From the IMG/VR virus record IMGVR_UViG_3300021256_000076, positions 1 to 64,000 of that record: a stretch of DNA of 64,000 nucleotides, one strand, 5' to 3'. The stretch is from a virus (Duplodnaviria; Caudoviricetes). Positions 30,515 to 37,379 of this stretch are shown here, piece after piece. The notes under the pieces are model-generated. The model did not search any database. It was not told the origin of the DNA and saw only the letters and a list, made by a program, of their open reading frames with translations. The position numbers were made by a program, and so were the translations under genes. Position 1 is the stretch's first letter, and the number at the start of each line of letters is the position of its first letter.

Positions 30515-31516
30515 ATGATAGTAGGCCAGACATCATCAAGCATCTCAAAGACAGAGGTGTTCTCCAAGTTCACAGAGACTCAGGTCCTTAAAGCTGTGTT
30601 TCCTGAAATATCAGAGGTTCCGTGCCTTATATGCTCACCCCTCAGAGTAGATAACAAGCCATCCTTCAGCATCTATATGACTGACGGAGGCCACATAGCA
30701 TGGAAAGACCATGCAGAGACTGGTGAGAGAGGAGGACTCATGGACCTATTGTGCAAATACTGGAAATGTACCTTCAATCAGGCTCTTGACAAGATATGCA
30801 AACTTCCTCAACTGAAGGATGAGATCGTCCTTAAGTCAAAGCAGATCAAGACACTCACAAGGAAAGAGGCAAGTACCTTGAAGAAGATAGAGGTAAAGGT
30901 AAGACCTTGGAGGGATTATGACTATGAATACTGGAAAAGCTATGGCATAGAGAAGCAATGGCTGCATTATGCAGGGGTATATCCGATAGCCTTCAAGATA
31001 ATAACCAAGAAGGACAAGGAGACAGGAAAGACTGTAAAATATTGCTTTCCTGCAGAGAAATATGCATATTGCTTCACGGAATTCAAAGAAGGCAAGTTAT
31101 CCCTGAAGATATACCAGCCCTACTCCAATAGGTTCAAGTGGTGCTCTTCAATGAGTGATGGGGTTATATCATTGTGGGCAAAGGTTCCTGAGTATGGAGA
31201 CAGGATTGTCTTATGCAGTAGCCTGAAAGATAGTCTTGTGCTGTCCTGTCAGCTTCATATTCCAGCAATAGCTCCTCAAGGAGAAGGCTATGATATATCT
31301 GAGACAGCTGTCAATGAACTAAAGAGAAGGTATAAGAAGGTATTCATCTGTTATGATACAGATGCTCCAGGGCTTAAGGACTCAGAGGTTCTTGCACAGA
31401 AAACAGGTTTTATCAACATTGTGCCTGATTTAAAGGGAGAGAAGGATCTATCCGATTACTATAAATCCCTTAAAAACAAAGATGAATTCAAACAACTAGA
31501 AAAATTATTTCATTAA
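30515..31516 (+). CDS. DNA primase (Toprim)
   Basis: SPLRVDNKPSF Zn-ribbon-like region; SSLKD; CYDTDAPG; KDLSD. Confidence 0.85.
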   Translation: MIVGQTSSSISKTEVFSKFTETQVLKAVFPEISEVPCLICSPLRVDNKPSFSIYMTDGGHIAWKDHAETGERGGLMDLLCKYWKCTFNQALDKICKLPQLKDEIVLKSKQIKTLTRKEASTLKKIEVKVRPWRDYDYEYWKSYGIEKQWLHYAGVYPIAFKIITKKDKETGKTVKYCFPAEKYAYCFTEFKEGKLSLKIYQPYSNRFKWCSSMSDGVISLWAKVPEYGDRIVLCSSLKDSLVLSCQLHIPAIAPQGEGYDISETAVNELKRRYKKVFICYDTDAPGLKDSEVLAQKTGFINIVPDLKGEKDLSDYYKSLKNKDEFKQLEKLFH

Positions 31517-31536: not shown

Positions 31537-32217
31537 ATGGAAAGAACAATCAAAATTGCCAACACTAAGACTCAGCAGCGTTATACTATCCAGACTTCAG
31601 CTACCACACTTGGTGAGCTTCAGGATCAGATGTCAGCACAGGGCATTGACTTTGCAGGCATGTCATTCACAGAAGGTCTTTCTAAGACCCAGCTTATCGG
31701 TAGGGACTCTCTGCTTCCCACCAATGTAATGTACAAGGGTCAGCCCACTAATGACTTGGTTATGCTGCTGACCAATACCACCAAGAACATTGCCTCTGGT
31801 GCCATCAGCCGTAAGGAGGCTTACCGTCTTATCAAGGAGATGAACCTTCAGGATGTTATTTCAGAGGGTGAGGGTAAGAACTATACCCTTGTGAAGACTG
31901 ATATCCTTGAGGATTACATCAATGATGAGCTTGGTGAGGAGTTTGACAAGAAGCTGGATGCCACCACTGAGGTTCTTGAGGAGGCCAAGAAGGCACCCAA
32001 GGTGGAGAATCCTCTGCCTGACATCAAGTCTGCTCCTCATCCTGAGGCTGTGGAGTGGTATTATATGGGCTTGAAAGCCATGCTGAAGAGCCATCTGCTC
32101 TATACCGATGACATTGCTGTCATTGCTGACCTTACTACTGAACTATACAAGCGCATGAAGGAGTCTGAGCCTAAGATTACTGACTCAGACATTGATGATA
32201 TGATTGCTAGTATCTAG
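31537..32217 (+). CDS. Putative ubiquitin-like (beta-grasp) modifier with C-terminal extension
   Basis: beta-beta-alpha (ATTLGELQ)-beta pattern ending KNIASG at residue 88; directly upstream of E2/JAB/E1. Confidence 0.6.
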   Translation: MERTIKIANTKTQQRYTIQTSATTLGELQDQMSAQGIDFAGMSFTEGLSKTQLIGRDSLLPTNVMYKGQPTNDLVMLLTNTTKNIASGAISRKEAYRLIKEMNLQDVISEGEGKNYTLVKTDILEDYINDELGEEFDKKLDATTEVLEEAKKAPKVENPLPDIKSAPHPEAVEWYYMGLKAMLKSHLLYTDDIAVIADLTTELYKRMKESEPKITDSDIDDMIASI

Positions 32218-32242
32218 CCATAACTGTTGAACTTGGTTGTGT

Positions 32243-32279
32243 CAGGGGGCAGATGAAACAGTCTGTCCCCTTTTATTTT
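32243..32279 (+). terminator. Terminator between the Ubl and E2 genes
   Basis: GGGGCAGA..TCTGTCCCC followed by T run. Confidence 0.7.
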
Positions 32280-32300
32280 CTAACATTATTAATAATATAT

Positions 32301-33527
32301 ATGATATACACAATCAATCAATTGAGACAAGAGATACTTGGCAATATCTACAATGTCTATGAGATATTCCAGAATTTCTTCGGAGAGCAATACACAGACC
32401 TTCAAGGAATCCCTACTGATGAGGATATAGCTAATTTCATGTCAAACTATCCTTCTGTAATCACTGTCACTATAGCTGAAAGAGAGAATTGCTATGATAT
32501 TCAGGCATCTACACTTCGTAACATCAAAAGGGCTTATTCAAGCCTGACACTGCCCATATTGGTGTGGTGGCCAAGAGTTACCATAACCAATGAGAATGAC
32601 AGGAGTGTTGTCATACATGATCTATATGCAAAGATTGAGGTTACTACTGAAGGGAGAATTCCATACCACAACAGGGGATTTCAGCTCAATAGGACTACAT
32701 TCACTGAAGAGCAGTTTTCCTGTGGGTATCTGCACAGTCATATTCCTTATTTTACTGGTATTCCCCATTTTGACAATCCCTGTTTGGGAAGTGGTCCTAT
32801 CAACAATACTATACTTGACTTGAAGAATGGCTATGAGGATACCTTATGGTTATTGTTCTGTCAGGAACTGTCATTGTATGTCACTGTGGAATCCCTCAGA
32901 GGTGGTCCTTATTTCAGAATGGAGACAATAGGCTCAAGGACTGTACTTTCAGAGTATAGCGGATACAGGTTTGAGTTTGACCATCTGACCAATACTGGGC
33001 TATATGGAGACTCCTATAAGGAGTTAGTTACAGAATTCCTCCCTTATTATTTAAAGAATGGACATCTGGCACTTAGCTACAAGGAAGGTACGTTTGTCCC
33101 TGGAATGCCATACTTTGACTATATCATTGATATATCAAATGCCTTCATAGACTTCTTCAATTCCAAGGATGCTTCTTTCCGAGAGAATAACAAACGCAGC
33201 CTATTTGATAGGAATTTGCTGAAAGAGGCTCTTATTGCAGAAGGCAAGTTCTACAGGACTGATGTTATGGCAAGAAGAACAGACACATCTTCCTGTGAAG
33301 GCAGTAGAATGTTTACTTTCAAAGGGGAGATGCAGCATCTCCATATCATTGCAGAGGATATGCACACAGAACCTGAGAAAACAATAATACTCTCAAACAG
33401 TGTTGCCATGTGTATCCTTCAGAACATACTTAAGGTTATTAATTACAGATTTACAAATGAACATAATAGAAAACAAGACAGTGGAGAAACAGCTTCCTCC
33501 ACTTATCAAACAGTCTGCTACATATAA
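32301..33527 (+). CDS. Putative prokaryotic E2 (UBC-like) protein
   Basis: GYLHSHIP...PCLGSGPI resembles the HxH/HPN..CLG E2 active-site signature. Confidence 0.6.
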   Translation: MIYTINQLRQEILGNIYNVYEIFQNFFGEQYTDLQGIPTDEDIANFMSNYPSVITVTIAERENCYDIQASTLRNIKRAYSSLTLPILVWWPRVTITNENDRSVVIHDLYAKIEVTTEGRIPYHNRGFQLNRTTFTEEQFSCGYLHSHIPYFTGIPHFDNPCLGSGPINNTILDLKNGYEDTLWLLFCQELSLYVTVESLRGGPYFRMETIGSRTVLSEYSGYRFEFDHLTNTGLYGDSYKELVTEFLPYYLKNGHLALSYKEGTFVPGMPYFDYIIDISNAFIDFFNSKDASFRENNKRSLFDRNLLKEALIAEGKFYRTDVMARRTDTSSCEGSRMFTFKGEMQHLHIIAEDMHTEPEKTIILSNSVAMCILQNILKVINYRFTNEHNRKQDSGETASSTYQTVCYI

Positions 33528-34665
33528 GCTGATAGTACCAAGAAAGGTTGAAGAGAAAATAAGATATCTGTGTAGGAAATTTCCTACCCTTGAGTGGTCT
33601 GGAGTATTGTTTACTACCCACGAAGGTAACTTTGAGGACGGCAATCTGGTGATTACATGTCAGGATATCTATCCAATGGATTTAGGTTCTCCAGGATTTA
33701 CTCAATTCAAGATGGATGAGACTGTGTCTGCCTATATAGCAGAGAATATTGAGCTATTTGACTGTGATGTACAGTTAGTGCATTCACATAACCAGATGCA
33801 GGCATTCTTCTCTGGTCAAGACCAAGCAACCCTTAGAGAAGAAGGCAATGACAGGAATTGCTTTGTGAGTTTAATTGTCAATAATGCAGGAACCTATTGT
33901 GCTGCCATTACCAGAAAGCTTCAGCTTACAAAGAAAGTCACAGTTGAGACATCTGGTGTGTCCTATGAGTTCTTTGGTGAGGGAAAGAAAGCCCTAACTA
34001 TTGGTACATCTCCTGTAGAGAATGTTTCAGAGGAGACAGCCATCCAGTATTTCATGCTTGATGTGGAAGTAGAGAAGGTAGAGAATCCTCTTGAATATCT
34101 TGACACAAGGTTTGATGAGATTGAGGCTAAGAAGAAAGCTACTACTCCTCCAAAGGTTAACCAGAAGATTGAGAAGTTTCCCTACATTGAAAGGCCTGTT
34201 GATGAAGATGAAGCTTTCTTTGATTGGATACACAAGGACAAGCCTGCTGTGGAGAGTCCTAAGCAAGCATCTTTGTGGGATAAGGATGAGATGGATGAGA
34301 TGATTGATGTGTCTGGATGGAATCCTGACCCAACTATTATCCATCATCTTTGCTGCCAGATGGTAACAAGCTCACTGATAGTCAATTCTGACATTGACCT
34401 CAAGCAATGGATAGTGCGTCACATGGAGAAGAAGTACAAGGAGATATTTGAGGACATGGAAGAGTTTGAAAGATGGGCTGACAGCATGATAGAGTTCATC
34501 CTCAACCATTACAATGATCCAGATGTTCCTGTGCAGCTCTATGATGATTGGGATTACTATATGGCAAAGATAGCAGGAGCTATCATTGATGAGCTGTCAG
34601 AGTATCCTTCAAATGACTACATTGATGAGTATATTGCACAATTAACAAAGAGAGGCTATGAATGA
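33457..34665 (+). CDS. JAB/MPN+ metallo-isopeptidase
   Basis: EWSG plus HSHNQMQAFFSGQD (E..HxH-x7-S-x2-D). Confidence 0.85.
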   Translation: MNIIENKTVEKQLPPLIKQSATYKLIVPRKVEEKIRYLCRKFPTLEWSGVLFTTHEGNFEDGNLVITCQDIYPMDLGSPGFTQFKMDETVSAYIAENIELFDCDVQLVHSHNQMQAFFSGQDQATLREEGNDRNCFVSLIVNNAGTYCAAITRKLQLTKKVTVETSGVSYEFFGEGKKALTIGTSPVENVSEETAIQYFMLDVEVEKVENPLEYLDTRFDEIEAKKKATTPPKVNQKIEKFPYIERPVDEDEAFFDWIHKDKPAVESPKQASLWDKDEMDEMIDVSGWNPDPTIIHHLCCQMVTSSLIVNSDIDLKQWIVRHMEKKYKEIFEDMEEFERWADSMIEFILNHYNDPDVPVQLYDDWDYYMAKIAGAIIDELSEYPSNDYIDEYIAQLTKRGYE

Positions 34666-35956
34666 GAATATAGATGATTGGATTAATTCTTTAAGCTGCT
34701 CCAATGAAGAGGAAGAGCAAAGCCCGTTTGAGGCAGGGATAATACCTCAGGAAGTTCCCCAGCCAGAACCTGAGCAGCCTCAGGCACAAGGTCTTTCTGA
34801 AGAGGATTTTGACAATATCCTTGAAGACTATGGTTTTACTCCGCCTGAGGATGTAGAGGCAGAAGAGATAACTGAGGAAGAGAGTGAGGAGGAGGAAGAG
34901 GTGGTTAATACTGACAGCTCAGAAGAGTACCATGAGAATATTGGTGAAGGAAGAGACCCTGATGCAGAAGAGGATGCTGACTGGGAGGAAGCTATTGACT
35001 CTGGTGCTATTTCTCCTGTATTGCACCAAACGTTTGAAGAAGGGCTAATCAATGGAGAAACTGCAGTCAGAGTAGATTCTGATGGCAGTATTCACAATTC
35101 AAGTATGGCAGAAGTTGGAGAGGTTATTTCCAATCCCCATAATAGCATTCATGATATACTTGAGATGGCTAGAGAGTTCATAGAACCAGCTGCCCCTGCT
35201 CCACAGGATGAATCTATGCTTCCACTCAATTCTCCTACCATACTGCTTGATGAATCCACTACAAGATTCTCTGGTGCTGAATGGTATAATGAGATTCAAA
35301 AGAAGAGCATCATTATTGCAGGCTGTGGAGGCATTGGATCAAACGCTGCCTTCCAGTTGGCAAGAATGCATCCAGCATCCATCGTGCTTTATGATGATGA
35401 TATTGTTGAGACAGTCAATATGGCAGGTCAGCTCTTCTCAAGGAATGATGTAGGCAAGGCAAAGGTAGATGCAATGCTTGATATGATAAGCCTATATACC
35501 AACATGCAGAACATCTATGCCCTGAGGCAGAGGTTTGAACCCAACACAGAAGCAGGAGATATAATGATATGTGGTTTTGACAACATGTCTGCAAGAAAGA
35601 CATTCTTTGAGGCATGGAAAAACCATGTATACAGAAAGCCTGAAGAGTATAGGAAGAACTGTCTGTATCTCGATGGAAGACTGAGCATGACAGACTTGCA
35701 GGTATTCTGCATAACAGGAGAAGACGACAACTATATGGAACAGTATAGAACCAAATATCTCTTCTCTGATGAGGATGCTGATGCTACTGTATGTTCCATG
35801 AAGCAGACTACCTATCTTGCATGTATGATTGGCTCTGTCATGGTCAATCTGTTCACCAATTGGGCAGCAGGACTGTTGGACCCCATCATGCCCTATGACC
35901 TTCCTTTCTTTACTGAGTATGATGCTCAGAACATGATTTTCAAAACTGTTAAGTGA
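34658..35956 (+). CDS. ThiF/E1-like adenylyltransferase with long acidic N-terminus
   Basis: GCGGIGS, DDDIVETVNMAGQ, GKAKV, CGFDNMSAR, LDGR; candidate Cys in TVCSMK. Confidence 0.88.
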   Translation: MNENIDDWINSLSCSNEEEEQSPFEAGIIPQEVPQPEPEQPQAQGLSEEDFDNILEDYGFTPPEDVEAEEITEEESEEEEEVVNTDSSEEYHENIGEGRDPDAEEDADWEEAIDSGAISPVLHQTFEEGLINGETAVRVDSDGSIHNSSMAEVGEVISNPHNSIHDILEMAREFIEPAAPAPQDESMLPLNSPTILLDESTTRFSGAEWYNEIQKKSIIIAGCGGIGSNAAFQLARMHPASIVLYDDDIVETVNMAGQLFSRNDVGKAKVDAMLDMISLYTNMQNIYALRQRFEPNTEAGDIMICGFDNMSARKTFFEAWKNHVYRKPEEYRKNCLYLDGRLSMTDLQVFCITGEDDNYMEQYRTKYLFSDEDADATVCSMKQTTYLACMIGSVMVNLFTNWAAGLLDPIMPYDLPFFTEYDAQNMIFKTVK

Positions 35957-36708
35957 TGAGTAGAAGCAGGAATTTAGAAAGTGTTATACAGAATATCTAT
36001 GGCCAGTATATCTATAGACATTGCTATTATCATTATCCTGTTGATGAAAGGAATACAACAGTAAAGTATCTGGAAATCCCAATCAACAAGGAAGTCTTTG
36101 AGGTTCCCATGTTTGCTCTGCATGTTCTTCAGGGAATCATCAGTGATGGAACAACTGGTAGAACAGATGCCATTGTGGTTTCCCTTGCAGACCATGGAAG
36201 TAAGCCTAACTACAAGACTCTGGAAAGGAATATGGTAGATGTACTGGAATGTGAATTTGAGTCATCAAAGCTCATAAGGGTAGATGCTTCCAATGGTTCA
36301 GAGAATATAAAATACTATGGAACCCATGGTGCCATATTTGATGATGGCTACAATCCTGTGGCAATGTATACCTGTCAGATAAAAAGAACAGAGACAGACA
36401 GTGAAAGCCATACATATTCCTATGAGATACTGAAGCCAATCCTAAGGATAAGACCTGATTCCTATAAGACAAGAGGGGATTCCATGGAGAAGTTCATCAC
36501 CAACAAGCTCATACTTGCAAGCATCTCTGACAGTATAGCTCCTCGCTATTATGACAATACCATCAATGTCCTCCGTGAATATAATATCGAAGTGGTCATT
36601 GGTGATATTCCCTTCAAACCCATCATAGCAGACAGCCCCAGCATCTCAACTACTAATAAGGAATTGCTTGAACTTGTAGTAGACCATATTGAGGAGGTGA
36701 TACAATGA
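35953..36708 (+). CDS. Hypothetical protein translationally coupled to E1 and UDG
   Basis: Overlapping start and stop codons on both sides. Confidence 0.7.
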   Translation: MMSRSRNLESVIQNIYGQYIYRHCYYHYPVDERNTTVKYLEIPINKEVFEVPMFALHVLQGIISDGTTGRTDAIVVSLADHGSKPNYKTLERNMVDVLECEFESSKLIRVDASNGSENIKYYGTHGAIFDDGYNPVAMYTCQIKRTETDSESHTYSYEILKPILRIRPDSYKTRGDSMEKFITNKLILASISDSIAPRYYDNTINVLREYNIEVVIGDIPFKPIIADSPSISTTNKELLELVVDHIEEVIQ

Positions 36709-37379
36709 CTGTAGGGGAATATTTTGGAGACTGGTCTAAGGTGATAGACCTGAAAGAGGCTGACAGAATCCTGAAAAAGCTGTCTTCCTCTGATGTTCCA
36801 GTGTGTCCCCCATTGAAGGATGTCTTCAAGGCATTCAGACTCTGTCCTCTTGATAGCCTCAGGGTGTGTGTCATAGGAATGGATCCATACCCTCAGAAAG
36901 GAGTGGCTACAGGCATTGCCTTTGGAAATTCCAAGGACACTCCGATAGAATCCTACTCACCTTCCTTAGGAATAATTAGGGAGTCTGTAATAGACTTCAC
37001 CAGACAACATGGAATAACTATCTTTGATCCAAGTTTGGAGAAGTGGGAAGAGCAGGGGGTGTTGTTGTTAAACTCAGCACTCACCTGCCAGTTAGGAAGA
37101 GTTGGCTCCCATACATTGCTGTGGTGGCCTTTCATGAAATCCTTACTCACTAATCTGTCTTGCTACCATACAGGGATAGTCTATGTCCTCATGGGCAATC
37201 AAGCTCAGAACCTTGAGCCATTCATAAATGCCAGATTCAATCATATAATAAGGATAAGACATCCCTCTTGGTATGCAAGAAACAAAACCAGAATGCCTTC
37301 TGACATCTGGAATGAGGTGAATGAAATCCTCATAGGTCAGAATGGCTATGGTATAGAATGGTACAAAGAAGTTATTTAA
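36705..37379 (+). CDS. ung: Uracil-DNA glycosylase (family 1)
   Basis: GMDPY, SPSL, QGVLLLN, HPS. Confidence 0.92.
   Translation: MTVGEYFGDWSKVIDLKEADRILKKLSSSDVPVCPPLKDVFKAFRLCPLDSLRVCVIGMDPYPQKGVATGIAFGNSKDTPIESYSPSLGIIRESVIDFTRQHGITIFDPSLEKWEEQGVLLLNSALTCQLGRVGSHTLLWWPFMKSLLTNLSCYHTGIVYVLMGNQAQNLEPFINARFNHIIRIRHPSWYARNKTRMPSDIWNEVNEILIGQNGYGIEWYKEVI

Follow-up and report, generated by a model that had tools for sequence, protein, structure and literature searches.

Five co-directional genes (p1 to p5), located between a DNA primase gene and a uracil-DNA glycosylase (UDG) gene of the IMG/VR virus record IMGVR_UViG_3300021256_000076, raise the question of whether a phage may operate a ubiquitin-like (Ubl) protein conjugation system of its own. 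The stretch analyzed here, referred to as the window, comprises the first 64 kb (positions 1 to 64,000) of this record. A first-pass annotation had placed four contiguous genes (Ubl modifier, E2-like protein, JAB protease and E1-like enzyme) plus a coupled orphan between primase and UDG, and the open reading frames as well as the motifs were indeed found at these positions. The folds and motifs observed, the invariance of key residues, strict synteny, a hairpin conserved after p1 and the finding of p1 genes naturally interrupted at a Gly codon make a phage-run module for Ubl activation and transfer the likelier account of this locus. Judged by its sequence, the phage probably tags proteins itself. 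The elements of the gene cassette are:

31537-32217, + strand: p1, Ubl-fusion protein of 226 amino acids (aa)
31537-31800, + strand: p1 residues 1-88, predicted ubiquitin-like beta-grasp with flexible tail K83-x-I85-x-S87-G88
31801-32217, + strand: p1 residues 89-226, helical segment, linker and C-terminal domain
32244-32281, + strand: terminator-like hairpin and T-run between p1 and p2 (stem-loop 32244-32271)
32301-33527, + strand: p2, probable E2-like protein of 408 aa (H145-S146-H147 at 32733-32741, C161 at 32781-32783)
33457-34665, + strand: p3, JAB/MPN+ (JAMM) metalloprotease of 402 aa
34658-35956, + strand: p4, ThiF/E1 protein of 432 aa (adenylation domain 35225-35956, Cys379 at 35792-35794)
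35953 or 35956 to 36708, + strand: p5, orphan protein of 251 or 250 aa

Thus, according to open reading frame listing and translation, the order on the + strand is primase, p1, hairpin, p2, p3, p4, p5 and UDG. The genes from p2 onwards are chained by overlaps (p2/p3, 71 nucleotides (nt); p3/p4, 8 nt; p4/p5, TGATG; p5/UDG, ATGA), and a spacer of 83 nt separates p1 from p2. The distance from the end of the primase gene to p1 is 20 nt, which makes co-transcription of the two probable.

Ubiquitin-like fold and conserved tail of p1

In the AlphaFold2 model of p1 (46-sequence alignment; mean predicted local distance difference test score (pLDDT) of 74.7), residues 3-80 are arranged as strand-strand-helix-strand-strands, i.e., in beta-grasp order. 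They are followed by a poorly defined stretch (residues 83-88, pLDDT <50) and by helices at residues 92-101, 105-112, 121-131, 169-184, 190-209 and 216-225. Nearly all of the best 50 Foldseek matches in the PDB are ubiquitin, UBX, ISG15, SUMO, NEDD8 or similar domains, with probabilities of 0.97-1.0 (~1.0 for the top matches), TM-scores by target of 0.45-0.72 and modest E-values of 3e-3 to 2e-2. The beta-grasp fold initially proposed for residues 1-88 is hence recovered, and a ubiquitin-type beta-grasp is well supported by the model for residues 1-80.

Residues 83-89 of p1 in the window read KNIASGA. Among 89 distinct p1 orthologues (25-64 % identity), K83, S87 and G88 are unchanged and I85 is altered once; the conservation of G88, a check suggested along with the first-pass annotation, thus extends to an S87-G88 pair invariant in 89/89 distinct sequences. 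The more distant FpV4 gp53 (29 % identical to p1) displays VKSGG at the position of G88. A Ubl modifier is expected to combine a beta-grasp fold with an accessible C-terminal Gly. The p1 protein has the fold and the invariant S87-G88, the Gly being internal, so that cleavage would be required.

Beyond G88, p1 continues with a conserved helical segment (~89-131), from which a linker that varies leads to a helical domain at the C-terminus with an acidic end of the DIDDM type; R92, K100, G113, N115, T117 and L124 are invariant in the orthologues. Judged by eye, the segment ~89-131 looks like a helix-extended-helix (SAP-like) module. No Pfam match was obtained for p1, and a search for a free-standing short Ubl form among the short p1 homologues yielded only fragments. 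The C-terminus of p1 (DIDDMIASI, 32185-32217) is resembled by the N-terminus of p4 (NIDDWINSL, 34658-34700) and, to a lesser degree, by the C-terminus of p5 (DHIEEVIQ, 36670-36708). Acidic-hydrophobic tails of this kind recur in the orthologues, the copy in p4 being confined to the clade of the window, and those of p1, p4 and p5 may represent a shared docking motif.

Cleavage of p1 by the JAB protein directly after G88 is favoured, because the S-G pair is invariant, the tail is predicted to be disordered, the gene is naturally interrupted at the Gly codon, and BubAB provides a precedent (PMC11601596). Two phage contigs of nearly full length (L087 and L090) display the interruption; in both, the p1 orthologue ends with KIKSGKF and the remainder of p1 forms a separate frame ~0.4-0.7 kb downstream, both halves being open:

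L087, 4969-5898: interrupted p1 orthologue
L090, 4685-5898: interrupted p1 orthologue

The insert in L090 encodes a homing endonuclease (HNH_3, NUMOD1 and NUMOD4) and that in L087 represents a degraded remnant. When aligned to an intact relative, both sequences have the insertion point directly after the Gly codon. Since Rfam shows no group I or II intron in the inserts at E up to 1, a split gene is favoured over the alternative of an unrecognised intron. In case of a split gene, the phage tolerates, or needs, separation of p1 exactly at the predicted cleavage point; in case of an unrecognised intron, the insertion targeted the most conserved nucleotides of p1. The interruption is taken to support a functional boundary at G88, although it does not prove cleavage.

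JAB protease, E1-like protein and orphan protein

The p3 protein is composed of a JAB/MPN+ domain (residues ~25-165) and a C-terminal helical domain. It displays the JAMM motif E...HxH...S..D expected for the protease of a Ubl system, with E46, H109-S110-H111, S119 and D122 invariant in 18 diverse orthologues. The Pfam model Prok-JAB matches p3 of the window with E 2.9e-4 (under the gathering score) and 15 of the 18 orthologues (best 2.4e-6), in agreement with the intact JAB/MPN+ protease assumed at first reading. Among PDB sequences, the p3 profile matches archaeal JAMM1 (5ld9, 5lda; E 0.007) and the Rpn11-like 6fjv.

The p4 protein begins with an acidic region that varies among orthologues (residues 1 to ~190), followed by one ThiF-type adenylation domain of ~240 residues (Pfam ThiF, E 8.5e-20, residues 206-431) with GCGGIGS at 222-228 and TVCSMKQTT at 377-385. 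Invariant in the orthologues are GxGGxG (222-227), D246/D248, D308 and C379, the latter being the sole Cys of p4 that is retained in FpV4 gp50. Thus, p4 combines the nucleotide-binding motifs of an E1 adenylation domain with a putative crossover-loop nucleophile, and the Cys in TVCSMK that had been put forward as catalytic candidate proved to be invariant. C379 presumably occupies the position of ThiF Cys184. Profile matches of p4 in the PDB extend over the entire E1 superfamily and include MccB, PaaA, UBA5, TcdA, ThiF, NAE1/UBA3, BubCD and Cap2, and the Cap2-type and BilD models of PADLOC cover only its adenylation core. The NCBIfam models for ThiF, MoeB and PRTRC_ThiF score p4 far under their cut-offs (best ThiF/MoeB model, PRK08644: 66.1 vs 159 bits). 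Since every ThiF, MoeB and PRTRC equivalog cut-off is missed by far, the database label "thiamine biosynthesis protein" is unjustified for p4.

For p5, a GTG at 35953 and an ATG at 35956 (GTGATG) are possible starts; the ATG, through which p5 and the p4 stop overlap as TGATG and which is also the start of the ESM Atlas form, is probably the true one. The gene is translationally coupled to p4 and UDG. Its product evolves fast, with only P52, Y121 and G126 invariant, and found no match in Pfam (E up to 1), PHROGs, NCBIfam, PADLOC, PDB sequences or the ESM Atlas.

A probable E2-like protein (p2)

The start of p2 at 32301 agrees with the orthologue alignment. An alternative ATG at 32253 was rejected, since it falls in the hairpin loop and the orthologues begin at the position of 32301.

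The AlphaFold2 model of p2 (pLDDT 85) was compared with 48,161 chains in a wide VIA search, in which ~30 of the best 50 rows belong to the ubiquitin-conjugating enzyme (UBC) superfamily at a modest Z of 4.2-6.2. They comprise true E2s, UEV domains (BRISC, Tsg101, VPS37A, FTS), RWD domains, FANCL, Cap2 (residues 7-153) and BubB, and align to model residues ~5-210. The enrichment is considered specific, because such chains can constitute only a small part of the 48,161 compared. Foldseek matched nothing in the PDB with this model. Moreover, p2 had no match in Pfam, NCBIfam or PADLOC at E up to 1, its profile had none among PDB sequences at E up to 10, the ESM Atlas provided nothing usable, and its PHROG match is a family of unknown function.

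The motifs HSHI (residues 145-148) and CLG (161-163) are present in p2 of the window, and 89 p2 sequences show no or almost no variation at H145, S146, H147, C161, G163, E197 and S198; FpV4 gp52 likewise keeps the HSH, a C-I-G and the E197-S198 pair. In the model, HSH and C161 reside in a loop after a beta-meander and before the next helices, where UBC enzymes carry their HPN...Cys. An E2 would be expected to show a UBC fold with a Cys after an HPN-like motif. The modest fold matches in VIA, the blank Foldseek result and the invariant HSH/C161 taken together, p2 is a probable E2-like protein of UBC-superfamily fold. Of the initial E2 assignment, the Cys motif, its conservation and a consistent, if modest, fold similarity have thus held, whereas a match to a sequence family was not obtained. 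The nucleophile is most likely C161; since the E2s of Bub systems use an oxyester chemistry with Ser333/His335 (PMC11601596), S146 represents a possible alternative.

Residues ~237-394 form a second domain of unknown fold in the model. In a profile search of 1.84 billion proteins, the p2 family comprises 2,671 clusters at 50 % identity, and only full-length orthologues are found among the 150 matches listed. Matches to the p2 model in BFVD are orthologues and unnamed marine-virus proteins only. The latter (A0A516LAI7, A0A516ML27, A0A516M3P8 and similar; viral, 420-590 aa, probability 0.9-1.0, 9-13 % identity to p2) may be more distant family members outside the crAss-like phages. In several VIA rows, small DNA-binding domains of the winged-helix or Xis-like type align with p2 residues 1-81, and the N-terminus (residues 1-55, 32301-32465) may carry a small extra module. 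A sub-cut-off match of PF25565 (At1g33420-like ubiquitin-like domain) to residues 3-54, observed in 26/51 family members, covers half of the profile in members that are not independent and is probably spurious.

Conservation of the gene cassette

The record that holds the window has 99,339 bases and a completeness of ~92 % (CheckV). By protein similarity, its closest named relatives are the Steigviridae crAss-like phages cr85_1, cr126_1, cr128_1, crAss001, DAC15 and the PhiCrAssBcn series, and Flavobacterium psychrophilum phages of the FpV4 type are more distant; comparison with a phage collection at the DNA level found no close record. The source of the window is a Steigviridae-like crAss gut phage of 99 kb. 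The genes flanking the cassette are:

30515-31516, + strand: DNA primase, upstream neighbour, 333 aa (PHROG 12622 DNA primase, E 1.2e-38; weak Toprim matches in Pfam)
36705-37379, + strand: UDG, downstream neighbour, 224 aa (Pfam UDG, E 1.5e-9)

Profile searches revealed the order p1-p2-p3-p4-p5 in 106 of 117 related loci, a constancy which argues against a chance arrangement and answers the synteny check proposed earlier; in the remaining loci, a contig end truncates the set or p5 is not recognisable. The set is present in crAss001 as gp79-gp75 and also in cr85_1, bajarodcaudo virus 1 and Dulem virus 41. FpV4 possesses it as gp53-gp50 plus a fifth gene, with UDG upstream instead of downstream of the cassette, indicating that the cassette moves as a unit. 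A p5 gene occupies the same position in 107/117 loci. The fifth gene of FpV4 (gp49; L036 7876-8964, 362 aa) has no detectable similarity to p5. From these sequences, the fifth position appears to be kept, its occupant turning over quickly or having been replaced.

In the annotation of crAss001, gp76 bears the wrong name "thiamine biosynthesis protein", and three of the proteins gp75-gp79 are hypothetical. Of the cassette, only the ThiF gene and a protein with "metalloprotease domain" carry names in GenBank records, and no description of it was found in the literature on crAss-like phages with ubiquitin or ThiF.

A conserved hairpin between p1 and p2

The hairpin at 32244-32271 is formed by 11 pairs (6 G-C) and followed by a T-run, as expected for the terminator that had been suspected at 32243-32279 between the Ubl gene and the enzymes. 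When a T-run and a hairpin stability of at least -14 kcal/mol were required, 67 of 69 distinct p1/p2 junctions qualified, crAss001 and FpV4 also carrying one after p1; by the same criteria, 0/332 random windows of equal size from the same loci were positive. The junctions display 46 different stem sequences; therefore, the structure rather than the sequence is conserved. No promoter of the Bacteroidetes type was seen between hairpin and p2. The simplest reading of this arrangement is an attenuator, by which p1 message would exceed enzyme message, and the earlier idea of a modifier made in excess gains support from the conserved hairpin.

Nine strong hairpin-T-run sites were recognised on the + strand of the 64-kb window (9722, 10190, 10436, 11358, 23243, 32244, 47818, 49667 and 63254), that between p1 and p2 being the sole one between 23.3 kb and 47.8 kb. 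These sites may mark transcription-unit ends of the phage.

Comparison with known systems

Type I Bub systems (6E.1) consist of BubAB (Ubl-E2 fusion), BubCD (JAB-E1 fusion) and BubE, and include a DUF6527 serine protease as well as an E1 without catalytic Cys (PMC11601596). The JAB of BubCD was experimentally shown to cut the BubAB fusion directly after a conserved Gly, giving the active Ubl (Ye et al. 2024, PMC11601596). The phage cassette resembles Bub in that the Ubl is the N-terminal part of a larger protein, the E1 has a single small adenylation domain, the (in the phage probable) E2 is minimal and a fifth protein is present; moreover, BubB and BubCD are among the fold or sequence matches of p2 and p4. 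In contrast to Bub, however, the Ubl is fused to a helical domain other than an E2, and JAB and E1 are encoded by separate overlapping genes. Furthermore, p4 keeps the invariant Cys379 (Tyr370 in BubCD), p2 keeps Cys and H-S-H (S333/H335 in BubB), p5 has no DUF6527 match (Pfam, E up to 1), and the cassette resides in a lytic phage rather than in a bacterial defence island.

Operon class 6d of Iyer et al. 2006 (PMC1779556) comprises Ubl, JAB, E1, E2 and a fifth protein. To this class belongs Bil (BilA-BilD; PMC10557695, PMC11601596), which shares with the cassette the separate genes for Ubl, E2 (a probable one in the phage), JAB and E1, the fast-diverging fifth protein of class 6d and the lack of an E3, the E2 being proposed to choose the targets. 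However, Bil is bacterial and anti-phage, and p4 has one adenylation domain of ~240 residues. The PADLOC models for BilA, BilB and BilC do not match, and that for BilD matches weakly (E 2.2e-5; Rossmann core at p4 residues 217-316); the cassette is thus not assigned to Bil. Likewise, PRTRC (NCBIfam TIGR03734-03742), known from plasmids and conjugative elements, is a set borne on mobile elements that includes a member of the ThiF family and, as protein A, a JAB-like one, but scores fall far short for PRTRC_ThiF (44.5 vs a cut-off of 144.75 bits) and PRTRC_A (13.2 vs 101.8), proteins B to F are unmatched and the cassette is devoid of ParB (NCBIfam).

TAPI/TAPK of phages lambda/T1 (PMC1779556) offers a phage Ubl whose C-terminal Gly is conserved and which is joined to an additional domain, together with a paired JAB peptidase (TAPK, JAB plus NlpC/P60) predicted to cut at the Gly; processing of the Ubl-fusion TAPI by JAB was already predicted by Iyer et al. 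2006. Unlike the present cassette, which is part of the replication module and has an E1 and the probably E2-like p2, this pair belongs to the tail module and comes without E1 or E2. Type II CBASS shares the E1 core, a JAB partner and, as far as the modest matches of p2 go, the UBC-like E2 fold (Cap2/Cap3), with Cap2 among the fold and sequence matches. Cap2, however, is an E2-E1 fusion conjugating the C-terminus of a CD-NTase, whereas the phage has no CD-NTase, no such fusion and a dedicated Ubl; the PADLOC E1-E2 models align only to p4 ~200-300, and the neighbours are primase and UDG. From ThiF/MoeB, the cassette is set apart by the absence of equivalog-level matches and by a neighbourhood without sulfur-transfer partner. 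In summary, the cassette appears to operate in the manner of Bil and Bub. It does not, however, show the traits that define Bil, Bub, PRTRC, CBASS and ThiF/MoeB where these can be tested, and is not a member of Bil, Bub, CBASS or PRTRC. The conserved p1/p2 hairpin and the interruption of p1 after the Gly codon are new here.

Proposed mechanism and alternative explanations

In the proposed pathway, p1 would be made as a precursor and cut after G88 by the JAB protease p3, so that residues 1-88 become a beta-grasp modifier ending in a free Gly and residues 89-226 a helical protein of their own. Activation would fall to the single-domain E1 p4, which probably forms a homodimer as do ThiF, MoeB and BubCD; it would adenylate G88 and take the modifier onto Cys379 of its crossover loop as a thioester. 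From there, the modifier would pass to the UBC-like domain of p2, most likely to C161 as acceptor or else to S146 of HSH, and p2 would deliver it to lysines on phage or host proteins. Target choice by the C-terminal domain of p2 or by p5 is conceivable, p3 could also reverse the modification, and the hairpin after p1 should yield more transcript for the modifier than for the enzymes. Release of a Ubl from a large fusion partner is the least orthodox step, yet it has a precedent in BubAB/BubCD and was predicted for lambda TAPI/TAPK.

Several points weigh against this pathway. The part of p1 after G88 is a conserved 138-residue protein and not a short propeptide, and no free-standing Ubl turned up among the short homologues; p1 could hence be an uncleaved Ubl-domain protein. 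Moreover, the 8 residues from the last strand of its Ubl domain to G88 exceed the length of the ubiquitin tail. None of p1, p2 and p5 is matched by a sequence model of prokaryotic E2, Ubl, Bil, Bub or PRTRC components. The E2 call for p2 rests on Z 4-6, and VIA warns that Z <8 can reflect a common arrangement; C161 is, from its place in the model, a candidate equivalent of the E2 Cys. Finally, the best PDB sequence matches of p4 are MccB, PaaA and TcdA, and the E1 superfamily also performs non-Ubl chemistry.

The latter matches, with UBA5 alongside at the top of the p4 list, would also suit a processing route without conjugation, in which p1 is a Ubl-fusion precursor or an uncleaved adaptor that the JAB protein matures or binds, p4 adenylates a peptide C-terminus (as MccB, PaaA) or a nucleic acid (as TcdA), and p2 serves as non-catalytic UEV/RWD-like scaffold. 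Indeed, the UBC fold is shared by many proteins without catalytic activity (UEV, RWD), which rank alongside true E2s in the VIA comparison of p2. The C-terminal part of p1, moreover, is conserved and in every case either fused to the Ubl or next to it. We nevertheless consider this route unlikely, as the Ubl tail ends in the invariant Gly that adenylation needs, and as the invariant Cys in the E1 crossover region and the invariant H-S-H and C of p2 are unexpected for a mere scaffold. A sulfur-carrier or small-molecule pathway appears rather improbable as well. Here, residues 1-88 of p1 would act as a carrier of the ThiS/MoaD/QbsE/CysO type, exposed by the JAB protein and adenylated to yield a thiocarboxylate (e.g., for a thio-modified nucleotide or cofactor), with p2 being an unrelated enzyme. 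In its favour are the database name of p4, whose best NCBIfam matches are ThiF and MoeB models, and the location of the cassette among genes of nucleotide and DNA metabolism; moreover, sulfur transfer is known from triads of Ubl, JAB and E1 that have no E2 (Iyer et al. 2006, PMC1779556). Yet the ThiF/MoeB equivalog scores are far too low (e.g., 66 vs 159 bits), Pfam, PHROG and NCBIfam scans detected no rhodanese, cysteine desulfurase, thiazole synthase or molybdopterin synthase in the cassette, p1 matches ubiquitin, UBX and ISG15 in Foldseek rather than ThiS or MoaD, and a UBC-like protein with invariant Cys always accompanies the other genes.

Least probable to us is a counter-defence function, by which the phage enzymes would mainly act on host Bil, Bub or type II CBASS, e.g., the JAB protein stripping host Ubl or CD-NTase conjugates and the phage Ubl, E1 and E2 serving as decoys. 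Those bacterial Ubl systems that have been studied act against phages, operons of class 6d occur in Bacteroides (PMC1779556), the host genus of crAss001, and counter-defence genes commonly diverge as fast as p5 does. However, all catalytic signatures of a full forward pathway are invariant across very divergent phages, including those of Flavobacterium, and the cassette resembles a core element with a constant place in the replication module, unlike the variable islands typical of anti-defence genes. Phage-run activation and transfer of a Ubl is accordingly retained as the preferred explanation. The chances appear evenly balanced for the wider claim that phages of the crAss001 lineage and of the FpV4 type run a complete Ubl conjugation of their own during replication, with the precursor yielding the tag and a second, probably nucleic-acid-binding protein, and with a divergent two-domain E2 that acts as E2 plus E3 and tags replication or defence proteins of host or phage.

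Implications for crAss-like phages

What has been characterised of Ubl conjugation in prokaryotes to date is defence of bacteria against phages (CBASS Cap2/Cap3, Bil, Bub), a picture that a complete set in a lytic phage would reverse. If true, the cassette would constitute the first ubiquitination system of a virus of bacteria and would assign a function to five genes of crAss001 (gp75-gp79). As crAss001, DAC15 and FpV4 are in culture, cleavage, thioesters and targets are directly testable. The cassette family is very large, as indicated by the 2,671 clusters of p2 alone, and the combination of a Ubl-fusion precursor with a conserved terminator suggests a simple means by which these phages may set the ratio of tag to enzyme.

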